DNA of 64,000 nucleotides from Chryseobacterium sp. FH1 (GTDB taxonomy: Bacteria > Bacteroidota > Bacteroidia > Flavobacteriales > Weeksellaceae). This document shows, piece by piece, positions 43,701 through 44,482 of this stretch. The stretch spans positions 224,317 through 288,316 of the forward strand of contig NZ_JPLZ01000002.1 in NCBI RefSeq assembly GCF_000735135.1, read 5' to 3'. The notes under the pieces are model-generated. The model made no database searches. It had not been told where the DNA came from and worked only from the letters and a program-made list of their open reading frames with translations. Position numbers and translations under genes: made by a program. How positions within the stretch are numbered: position 1 is the stretch's first letter; each line of letters begins with the position of its first letter.

Positions 43701-43883
43701 GTTGGAATAAATTCCCACGTTAACATTTTGTTGGAATAAATTCCAACTCTAAAATATCTTTGGTCTACATTTCGTTGGAATAAATTCCAACGCTAAAATA
43801 TCAGTTGTTCCTACGGAACTATTCTTTGTAGCCACAGTCGCAGAGCGACGACCGATTTTCCAACCTGAGATTTTAATCTCAGG
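43701..43883 (+). repeat. REP/BIME-like hairpin cluster 3' of the RAYT gene
   Basis: Three copies of the GTTGGAATAAATTCCAAC hairpin (one degenerate) plus the hairpins GTTCCTACGGAAC, GTCGCAGAGCGAC and CCTGAGATTTTAATCTCAGG. Confidence 0.65.
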
Positions 43884-43897
43884 ATATCATCAACAGC

Positions 43898-44359
43898 TTA
43901 AGCCAAGTCCTCAAACCAAAAATTTTCATCATAATCCACTTCAAATTTTTTCAACAATTGATGATATTCATCTTTGAAAGTTTGATTTTTGTGATGTTCT
44001 TCTTGATTTTCAATATATTTATACACTTTATCAATTGAAGATTGGTTATAACTAAAACCACCAAATCCTCTTTGCCATTCAAAACGTTCGTCTAATAATC
44101 TGCTTTCATTAACCCATTTTGAAGACTTTGCTTTCACACTTTTCATCACATCAGAAAGAGAAAGCGTAGTTTTTAACGTGAAGAAACAATGAACGTGGTC
44201 TTCAACGCCATTAACAATGATGGTTTTACAACCAGTTTCGTTTATCAAATTTCCAATGACCGCAAACAACTCTTTTCGGAAACTCTCTTTTATCAAAGAA
44301 TTCCTATACTTAACTGCAAAAACTGCTTGCACATAAAGTTTTACATAAGTGTTTGACAT
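43898..44359 (-). mobile_element. REP-associated tyrosine transposase (RAYT; IS200/IS605-family HuH TnpA-like)
   Basis: About 153 aa from MSNTYVKLYVQAV; HuH motif DHVHCFF, catalytic-Tyr region RGFGGFSYNQSS, C-terminal IENQEEHH; flanked on both sides by the same hairpin module; the ORF-track start at 44374 is a TTG. Confidence 0.7.
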
Positions 44360-44382
44360 ATTACTTTTTTTCAACTTTTCTT

Positions 44383-44482
44383 GGTTGGAATAAATTCCAA
44401 CCTTGGGAAATCAATCGTTCCTATGGAACTCAAAGTCGCAAAGCGACGACCGATTTCCCAACCTAAGATTTTAATCTTAGGG
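44383..44482 (+). repeat. REP/BIME-like hairpin module 5' of the RAYT gene (direct copy of 43774-43883)
   Basis: GGTTGGAATAAATTCCAACC ... GTTCCTATGGAAC ... GTCGCAAAGCGAC ... CCTAAGATTTTAATCTTAGG. Confidence 0.65.

Follow-up and report, generated by a model that had tools for sequence, protein, structure and literature searches.

We describe a cassette of about 715 bp (43770-44484) in a 64,000-nt stretch of contig NZ_JPLZ01000002.1 from Chryseobacterium sp. FH1, hereafter the window, in whose coordinates positions are given unless another locus is named. The cassette consists of a gene for a 153-aa Y1-type HuH protein and, on both sides of it, one copy of a composite hairpin module. By analogy with known Y1 enzymes and their palindromic repeats we read it, with a probability of roughly 60%, as a REPtron-like cassette around a domesticated IS200-type Y1 HuH enzyme of subclass 1.2, for which the modules would be the cognate substrate.

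The protein had been recognised in a first-pass annotation by its HuH and tyrosine motifs and named a RAYT (repetitive extragenic palindromic (REP)-associated tyrosine transposase) of IS200-like HuH type. It matches Pfam PF01797 (Y1_Tnp) with an E-value of 4e-26 and 91.8 bits (cutoff 23), and its HuH motif (D54-H55-V-H57) and tyrosine region (Y115...Q119) are in register with the IS200/IS605 TnpA structures 2f4f and 2xm3, the alignment partners being Sulfolobus SSO1474 and ISDra2 TnpA. The IS200-like half of the name is borne out by the NCBIfam IS200/IS605 model NF033573 (65.3 bits, above the cutoff of 55). The RAYT half is not, as a class-2 RAYT identity is ruled out by YIENQ in place of Y-x3-NP and by a score of only 28.2 bits, below the cutoff of 80, with the NCBIfam model REP_Tyr_transpos (NF047646). 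No tnpB adjoins the gene, in keeping with the annotation. PADLOC gave no defence match, and an exact lookup of the protein sequence returned no record.

Across 29 homologues the motifs DHVH, EWQ (W95-Q96) and YIENQEEHH (Y115-IEN-Q119-EE-H122-H123) are invariant, as are F128, E131, Y132, L136 and F149 in the 30-residue tail that follows the paired histidines. The published signature of TnpA_Y1 subclass 1.2 comprises DH[IV]H, WQ and Y-x3-Q-x2-HH, a total length of about 148 aa and a conserved C-terminal tail that is peculiar to the subclass (about 30 aa) (Quentin, Siguier, Chandler, Fichant 2018, BMC Genomics 19:475; PMC6006769). Subclass 1.2 proteins lie near the IS200 transposases yet lack the properties of insertion sequences, occur at low copy number and are found in Bacteroidetes and Cyanobacteria only; they were reported to be without flanking REPs and without IS200-type terminal secondary structures, which describes the subclass but does not define it (PMC6006769). 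Judged by its sequence the 153-aa protein fits this subclass, the assignment by tail and length having been made by match to the published description and not by a subclass hidden Markov model. Further subclass traits seen here are one copy in the window, one context per orthologue and a host from the Weeksellaceae (Bacteroidota). The structured flanks extend subclass membership and do not contradict it.

The same four-hairpin module had been annotated on both sides of the gene in the same orientation, and all of its hairpins are present at both places. H1 (TTGGAATAAATTCCAA) is exact at 43731, 43775 and 44385 and has one mismatch at 43702, so that the three copies claimed for the 3' side of the gene are also accounted for; with up to two mismatches it has 8 matches in the window against 0.31 expected by chance, the sole one off the locus lying at 38395 with 2 mismatches. 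H2 (GTTCCTAYGGAAC) occurs at 43807 (as GTTCCTACGGAAC) and 44417 (as GTTCCTATGGAAC), and H3 (GTCGCARAGCGACGACCGATTT / GTCGCAGAGCGACGACCGATTT) at 43837 and 44435, with 0 expected by chance. H4 (CCTRAGATTTTAATCTYAGG) is found at 43864 (CCTGAGATTTTAATCTCAGG) and 44462 (CCTAAGATTTTAATCTTAGG), the two copies differing by a compensatory G-C to A-T change. Chance expectations for the four hairpins range from 0 to 0.7. The two modules are direct repeats with starts 598-610 nt apart, and two additional tandem linker + H1 units stand immediately upstream of the rsmI start codon.

Several features go beyond the annotation. A fifth helix, P1, is an outer helix of 12-14 bp that encloses both 5-bp hairpins H3 and H2, giving in gene orientation the order H4, P1 5' strand, H3, H2, P1 3' strand, linker, H1 over a module length of 105-120 nt. 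Both the gene and the better-scoring reading of the module are on the minus strand, the module contains an internal inverted dimer, and a third, partial copy lies at 20574-20625 on the plus strand. The minimum-free-energy fold of the 5' module equals the consensus structure, with z-scores of -8.3 as DNA and -8.5 as RNA.

Orthologue flanks carry the same module with helix sequences that have changed yet remain complementary. P1, for instance, is ATCGGTC/GACCGAT in the window, ATCGGCC/GGCCGAT in Kaistella and ATCGCTC/GAGCGAT in Cruoricaptor. A protein-based metagenome scan added 80 loci to the sample, and a profile built from 13 modules detected module copies beside homologues down to 60% identity. 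We then aligned 47 distinct module copies adjoining Y1 homologues. RNAalifold recovered the helices from this alignment, with 25 of 31 pairs compensated. In the five-helix structure, pairing holds in 90.9% of cells and both sides have changed in 32 of 40 pairs (10 of 14 in P1), and the covariation score of 0.488 compares with 0.170 for shuffles, none of 500 reaching the observed value, and with at most 0.107 for slid controls. The alignment shows the five helices to be kept by compensatory change across the Bacteroidota.

The covariance model of the full module (R1) scores on both strands of every module, the gene-sense strand being about 20 bits higher in the window, and a model of the H2-linker-H1 half (R2; this half is termed unit B) gives 57 and 53 bits with the other half, H4/H3 (unit A), on the opposite strand. 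The loops show the same symmetry. The H2 triloop conforms to R-N-A in the sense reading of 42 of 47 copies (34 of them G-N-A) and the H3 triloop does so in the antisense reading of 39 of 47, while the sense loops of H1 are TTTA or TTCA and those of H4 are TAAA or TGAA, which is TTTA or TTCA antisense. Sequence comparison shows each module as an inverted dimer of one unit of about 53 nt with mirrored loops, the unit comprising a 5-bp hairpin with an R-N-A triloop, GACCGAT plus linker, and an 8-bp hairpin with a TT(T/C)A loop. Hence either strand of the DNA presents a single unit, in the same orientation. The REP/BIME-like character (BIME, bacterial interspersed mosaic element) that the annotation gave to the flanks is upheld by this covarying inverted dimer. 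Their direct orientation, which had been thought atypical, is also confirmed and ceases to be a puzzle, since the symmetry expected of a BIME or of a REPIN (REP doublet forming hairpins) sits within each module. C-GNA-G triloop mini-hairpins are known to be unusually stable as DNA, and are not known for this as RNA; this and the mirrored loops somewhat favour a role at the DNA level over that of a single transcript. Replication direction could not be read from GC skew, which is weak and follows gene orientation, so that a lagging-strand template was not assignable.

The module accompanies the gene widely. Among 60 distinct Y1 loci with enough flank, nhmmer, which is less sensitive than the covariance model, placed a module within 450 nt of the gene in 46 and on both sides in 29. 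The best covariance-model matches in Y1-bearing loci are co-oriented with the gene in 65 of 84 cases.

The closest homologues of the protein, at 91% identity, are in Epilithonimonas ginsengisoli-type contigs, and further ones (72-87% identity) are in Kaistella, Cruoricaptor, the Flavobacteriales metagenome-assembled genome (MAG) UBA5040 and metagenome contigs. These orthologues share a context of thymidine kinase, acidic protein or Mur ligase, Y1, rsmI and fabG, and every Weeksellaceae-like locus has the Y1-rsmI arrangement. Between orthologue pairs synonymous change is largely saturated (dS 0.7 to >1.8) and dN/dS is 0.05-0.09; by these substitution ratios the Y1 gene is under strong purifying selection. 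A 'lone IS200 relic', which the annotation had held out as the alternative, is at odds with this selection on the gene and with a module structure that covaries across Bacteroidota. In UBA5040 the syntenic Y1 orthologue (L060:1311-1766) has an in-frame stop at codon 17, either a pseudogene or a MAG assembly error, and both of its modules are intact. No relatives of the Y1 gene were present in 2.9 million viral contigs, and on plasmids there were two in 72,556, both large and non-mobilizable. Multi-copy cassettes were not seen: homologue P0001 occurs on 19 contigs, and the ten places listed for it, seven of them grouped as similar, all have one gene context. A single immobile copy under strong constraint points to host-level selection, that is domestication, as opposed to a hopping insertion sequence.

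The 5' and 3' modules are 76-96% identical within a genome and mostly 55-83% between genomes, a pattern of concerted evolution that shows the two flanking modules to be homogenised within a genome. In Epilithonimonas lactis DSM 19921, whose neighbouring proteins are 93-99% identical to those of the window (three of four around 99%), the Y1 gene is gone and a single hybrid module remains, the H4 side being of the 5' type and the rest of the 3' type. The deletion is 598 bp with its crossover in GGTCGTCGC. The aligned sequences show that flanking modules can recombine, deleting the gene and leaving a solo module. Local amplification of units is seen as well, in a 44-nt linker + H1 unit that the window has and E. 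lactis lacks.

Other rearrangements were seen at individual loci. In L017:2692-2976 and L079:2963-3349 the Y1 gene is in another context, with a radical-SAM gene upstream, and both modules stand in tandem upstream of Y1; the duplication in L017 extends into the upstream gene, taking in its 3' end, and has its junction within the H1 loop at ATTT microhomology. Flavobacterium limnophilum (CP114289.2; L013:541-2891) has nine tandem 262-nt units of 90% identity, each joining the terminal ~32 codons of hsdS, the type I restriction gene that lies upstream, to one full module. This array fills a 2.3-kb gene-free stretch directly upstream of Y1 within an hsdS/hsdM island, and its hsdS-like segments vary between units. 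We considered whether the L017 and L013 junctions were made by the enzyme and did not retain the idea, as the microhomologies are short (ATTT; GATAA) and slippage fits equally. In a Cruoricaptor ignavus MAG (L012:3555-4404) a hexapeptide-repeat transferase gene lies between the 3' module and an extra solo unit B preceding rsmI, and looks as if inserted between module copies.

Dispersal of the units is limited in the window's genome. A filter-free R2 scan of the window found one unit off the locus in about 63 kb, and a search of 185,579 species genomes for exact matches to GGAATTTATTCCAACRAAA gave 55 stretches, with a single one in each Epilithonimonas genome and many of the 55 being coincidences within coding sequence or gammaproteobacterial REPs. 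The dispersed REP family that the annotation had envisaged was therefore not found as such, although low-copy solo units and arrays occur elsewhere. In genomes of Epilithonimonas and Chryseobacterium, solo B units directly precede murG and further dcw genes. Because the exact pattern misses diverged units, copy number per genome is an estimate: tens of diverged units at most, with a wide confidence interval, and not the hundreds of classical REPs. In one metagenomic lineage (L111, L119, L121 and L129; Y1 61% identical) half-modules of the unit A type (H4, P1 strand and H3) form tandem arrays with a 69-nt period, as in L119:2854-3320, and recur in several other intergenic regions. These arrays are real REP/BIME-like proliferation, unlike the state of the window's genome.

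Collectively, we favour a model where the Y1 protein would bind the unit hairpins in transiently single-stranded DNA, for example at a replication fork, as IS608/ISDra2 TnpA and E. coli TnpA-REP do. The HuH/Tyr centre would then cleave and rejoin nearby, so that units would be copied, moved or homogenised while the gene itself is not moved. The modules would be the cognate substrate and the functional equivalent of the left and right ends (LE/RE) of an insertion sequence or of REP/BIME elements, and effects on mRNA might arise as a by-product, given that the modules probably lie within the operon transcript.

A number of observations weigh against this reading. The link between protein and hairpins appears from adjacency, co-distribution and analogy, and both the E. 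lactis deletion and the homogenisation of the flanks are explicable by homologous recombination between 100-nt direct repeats, with no need of the enzyme. The repeat is very low-copy in this genome, with little sign of ongoing dissemination. By nhmmer, 14 of the 60 homologue loci have no module, although the covariance model found modules in several of them. Solo units are always just upstream of a co-oriented start codon, which an RNA-level role would also fit. The wobble count says little about the strand (104 G-T and 56 A-C cells in the sense reading), and both strands fold equally well.

Of the other explanations, we regard as unlikely that the cassette is an ordinary, very quiescent IS200-type insertion sequence of about 715 bp, with the modules as left and right ends and peel-and-paste transposition. 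Its size is IS200-like, the NCBIfam IS200 model is passed, and the ends of IS200/IS605 elements such as IS608 bear similar same-strand hairpins. Gene and module are also found in other contexts, beside a radical-SAM gene in L017 and L079 and in a restriction-modification island in L013, so the unit has been relocated or transferred at least rarely. The occupation of the same site across several genera, together with the synonymous saturation and the low dN/dS (0.05-0.09), is hard to reconcile with such an element, since selection on a transposase could not be maintained by transposing if its single copy is immobile. The absence of multi-copy occurrence among the P0001 contigs and places listed, of relatives in the viral contigs and of all but two on plasmids speaks in the same direction, as do a subclass signature for which the literature gives no IS properties (PMC6006769) and the existence of units and half-modules without the gene.

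We give about the same low weight to the possibility that the module is primarily a structured RNA, either an intercistronic or 5' untranslated region (5'-UTR) element or a small RNA (sRNA), with a regulatory or historical link to Y1, for instance through Y1/rsmI expression or mRNA stabilisation. The covariation is of RNA-family quality, G-T cells outnumber A-C cells by around 2:1 on the gene-sense strand, and in Weeksellaceae every full or solo unit points in the direction of the gene that follows and stops 5-25 nt short of its start codon. As the genes on either side of the modules run the same way and no promoter-like or convincing terminator-like site is present, transcription of the modules as part of an operon is probable. 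The promoter and terminator scan gave nothing above shuffled expectation that would account for the module, the terminator-like calls in it being H2 and H3 themselves, and no Bacteroidetes-type TAnnTTTG box was seen by eye in the 5' module. There is precedent in that the 5' UTR of IS200 tnpA is reported to yield a trans-acting sRNA. An antisense sRNA encoded by IS200, art200, is also described (PMC4513863).

An RNA element would not be expected to have mirrored loops, half of the conserved loop sequence being 'correct' on the antisense strand only, nor would the unit-B model be expected to match unit A on the opposite strand. Around 19 of 84 modules score higher in the direction opposite to the gene, and the equal folding of the two strands counts against an RNA as well. 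Tandem arrays in non-coding stretches resemble repeat proliferation and not a cis-regulator, and C-GNA-G mini-hairpins are known for their stability as DNA. All Rfam families, moreover, stay below their gathering scores: none of 4227 families reached it in 12 diverse homologue loci, and none did in the window in E-value mode. The best match in the window was Acido-Lenti-1 (30.2 bits, gathering score 37). RAGATH-34, on which the literature search gave no papers, was rejected at 22.3 bits (gathering score 60.7; E ~1). Matches to snoRNA and miRNA families were dismissed as chance.

A little less probable again, in our estimate, is a bolder variant in which the subclass-1.2 Y1 protein and the five-helix module form an unrecognised, Bacteroidota-wide domesticated system with a host function, the HuH enzyme acting on a fixed structured element of the chromosome and not disseminating repeats. 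The function might be to control rearrangement of local DNA or variation in copy number, for which the nine-fold array of the hsdS 3' end and module in Flavobacterium limnophilum could be an example. Taken furthest, this variant would make the transcribed module an RNA that partners or regulates the enzyme.

A classical RAYT-REPIN system, with a class-2 transposase maintaining dispersed REP doublets, has very little to recommend it and survives as a functional analogy only, for although the gene is single-copy, vertically inherited and set between palindromic repeats, each module is an inverted unit doublet and some lineages have many dispersed or tandem copies, it is contradicted on protein-family criteria (YIENQ, not Y-x3-NP; REP_Tyr_transpos 28 bits against a cutoff of 80), H1 and H4 lack a GT[AG]G foot, and the exact H1 pattern occurs once per Epilithonimonas genome with one solo unit in 64 kb.

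The REPtron-like reading can be set against known systems. The cassette shares with TnpA_Y1 subclass 1.2 (PMC6006769) the motifs, a length of ~150 aa, the ~30-aa C-terminal tail, low copy number, occurrence in Bacteroidota and the lack of IS behaviour; it differs from the subclass as published in its covarying five-helix module on both flanks, found also beside homologues down to 60% identity. Like the REPtron of E. coli TnpA-REP with REP/BIME (Nunvar 2010; Ton-Hoang 2012, PMC3333891), it has a single-copy, chromosomal and vertically inherited Y1 gene between presumed cognate palindromes, two diverged types of unit paired as inverted doublets (Y and Z REPs there, H4-type and H1-type units here) and units elsewhere in intergenic DNA. 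In contrast to that system, the enzyme is of class 1 (Y-x3-Q) and not class 2 (Y-x3-NP), a GTAG foot is missing, the individual unit combines two hairpins with a conserved GACCGAT linker, and this genome has a handful of copies instead of hundreds.

The IS200 group (Salmonella IS200, IS608 and ISDra2 TnpA) is the closest protein family, NF033573 being passed and the catalytic residues aligning with 2xm3 and 2f4f; a cassette size of ~0.7 kb, ends that are structured on one strand and the lack of a tnpB are further common features. Here, however, the locus is fixed across genera, multi-copy occurrence was not seen, phage contigs lack it and plasmids nearly so, and the ends are near-identical composite modules of 105-120 nt that exist also without the gene. 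REPINs (Bertels and Rainey 2011, PMC3116915) likewise combine a single-copy Y1 gene with two homologous inverted units that fold together, as through P1 here, but the present units are bipartite (a short and a long hairpin), their long hairpins have diverged between the halves and their population is tiny. A comparison with CGTC-tagged REPs, which have 8-9-bp stems, a CCA tail and no transposase association (PMC3733652), gave no convincing match.

Y1 enzymes that have cognate palindromic repeats are a known kind of system. In the literature searched, subclass 1.2 is described only by Quentin et al. 2018, without associated repeats (PMC6006769), and hence a phylum-wide, covarying composite module flanking subclass-1.2 genes is new information. 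The module is a first candidate DNA partner for these little-studied enzymes. We know of no substrates for Y1 HuH enzymes beyond IS200/IS605 and the proteobacterial RAYTs. Here there is a defined, phylogenetically supported DNA structure, with unit boundaries, conserved loops and the GACCGAT linker, that co-occurs with the gene across the phylum, and the enzyme-substrate question is now directly testable with oligonucleotides. The family tree also gains a REPtron-like system on its IS200 side, which bears on the origin of REP systems from insertion sequences.

The findings touch on one Rfam family in addition. Acido-Lenti-1 (RF01687; Weinberg 2010) has the same unit architecture, namely an 8-bp hairpin, a linker of ~12 nt (GCUAAnnUAU) and a 5-bp triloop hairpin. 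Its sub-threshold matches cover one unit per strand, H1+H2 with 30.2 bits at 43773-43820 (+) and H4+H3 with 26.3 bits at 44434-44481 (-). It differs in that these scores are below gathering, it comes from other phyla (Acidobacteria and Lentisphaerae) and it is filed as a candidate sRNA, with the original list as the only literature found on it. REP-like structures surround class-3 Y1 genes of Acidobacteria (PMC6006769), and we infer a tie between these and Acido-Lenti-1. The family may be a REP-like DNA element associated with Y1 genes of class 3, in which case at least one of the 'sRNA' candidates in Rfam would really be a DNA repeat that goes with Y1 genes.

Features of the Y1 locus and related elements in the window (helices are listed in gene orientation)
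Feature	Position	Strand	Remarks
Y1 HuH gene, 153 aa	43898..44359	minus	fits TnpA_Y1 subclass 1.2, IS200-like; stop codon 43898-43900
5' module	44381..44484	minus	R1 111.2 bits minus, 93.5 plus
5' module, H4	44462-44481		
5' module, P1 5' strand	44448-44461		
5' module, H3	44435-44447		
5' module, H2	44417-44429		
5' module, P1 3' strand	44403-44416		
5' module, H1	44383-44402		
3' module	43770..43886	minus	R1 116.3 bits minus, 92.6 plus; fold z -5.1 as DNA
3' module, H4	43864-43883		
3' module, P1 5' strand	43850-43863		
3' module, H3	43837-43849		
3' module, spacer	43820-43836		17 nt
3' module, H2	43807-43819		
3' module, P1 3' strand	43793-43806		
3' module, H1	43773-43792		
Two additional tandem linker + H1 units	43698..43768	minus	R2 33.8 and 21 bits
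H1 copies of the tandem units	43730-43747 and 43700-43719		second with one stem mismatch
Solo unit B (GTCCCATCGGGAC, linker, ATAGGAATTCATTCCTAT)	20574..20625	plus	nhmmer E 4e-5; R1 32.7 bits
rsmI-like methyltransferase gene	43009..43680	minus	named from Pfam TP_methylase match; downstream neighbour, synteny anchor
Upstream neighbour, 452-aa acidic protein	44495..45853	minus	orthologues in syntenic loci

The solo unit B stops 5 nt ahead of a histidine-kinase gene's ATG (20630), the downstream open reading frame matching Pfam HATPase_c; its R2 score of 54.3 bits is inflated, as its sequence was in the R2 training set. The exact H1 hairpin GGTTGGAATTTATTCCAAC was also met with a 5' GTAG foot (TGTAGGTTGGAATTTATTCCAAC) in marine Gammaproteobacteria (L034, L036, L041, L047, L048, L061 and L064), one MAG having TGTAGGTTGGAATTTATTCCAAC on three of its contigs and an Alteromonadaceae contig having two copies in tandem. 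These footed copies look like a classical GTAG-REP that shares its hairpin sequence with the module of Flavobacteriia.

The 452-aa neighbour, whose stop codon lies ~13 nt before H4 of the 5' module, matched no Pfam family and nothing in PADLOC. It is extremely acidic, rich in Glu/Asp repeats and fast-evolving, with 83% identity against 96-99% for its neighbours.

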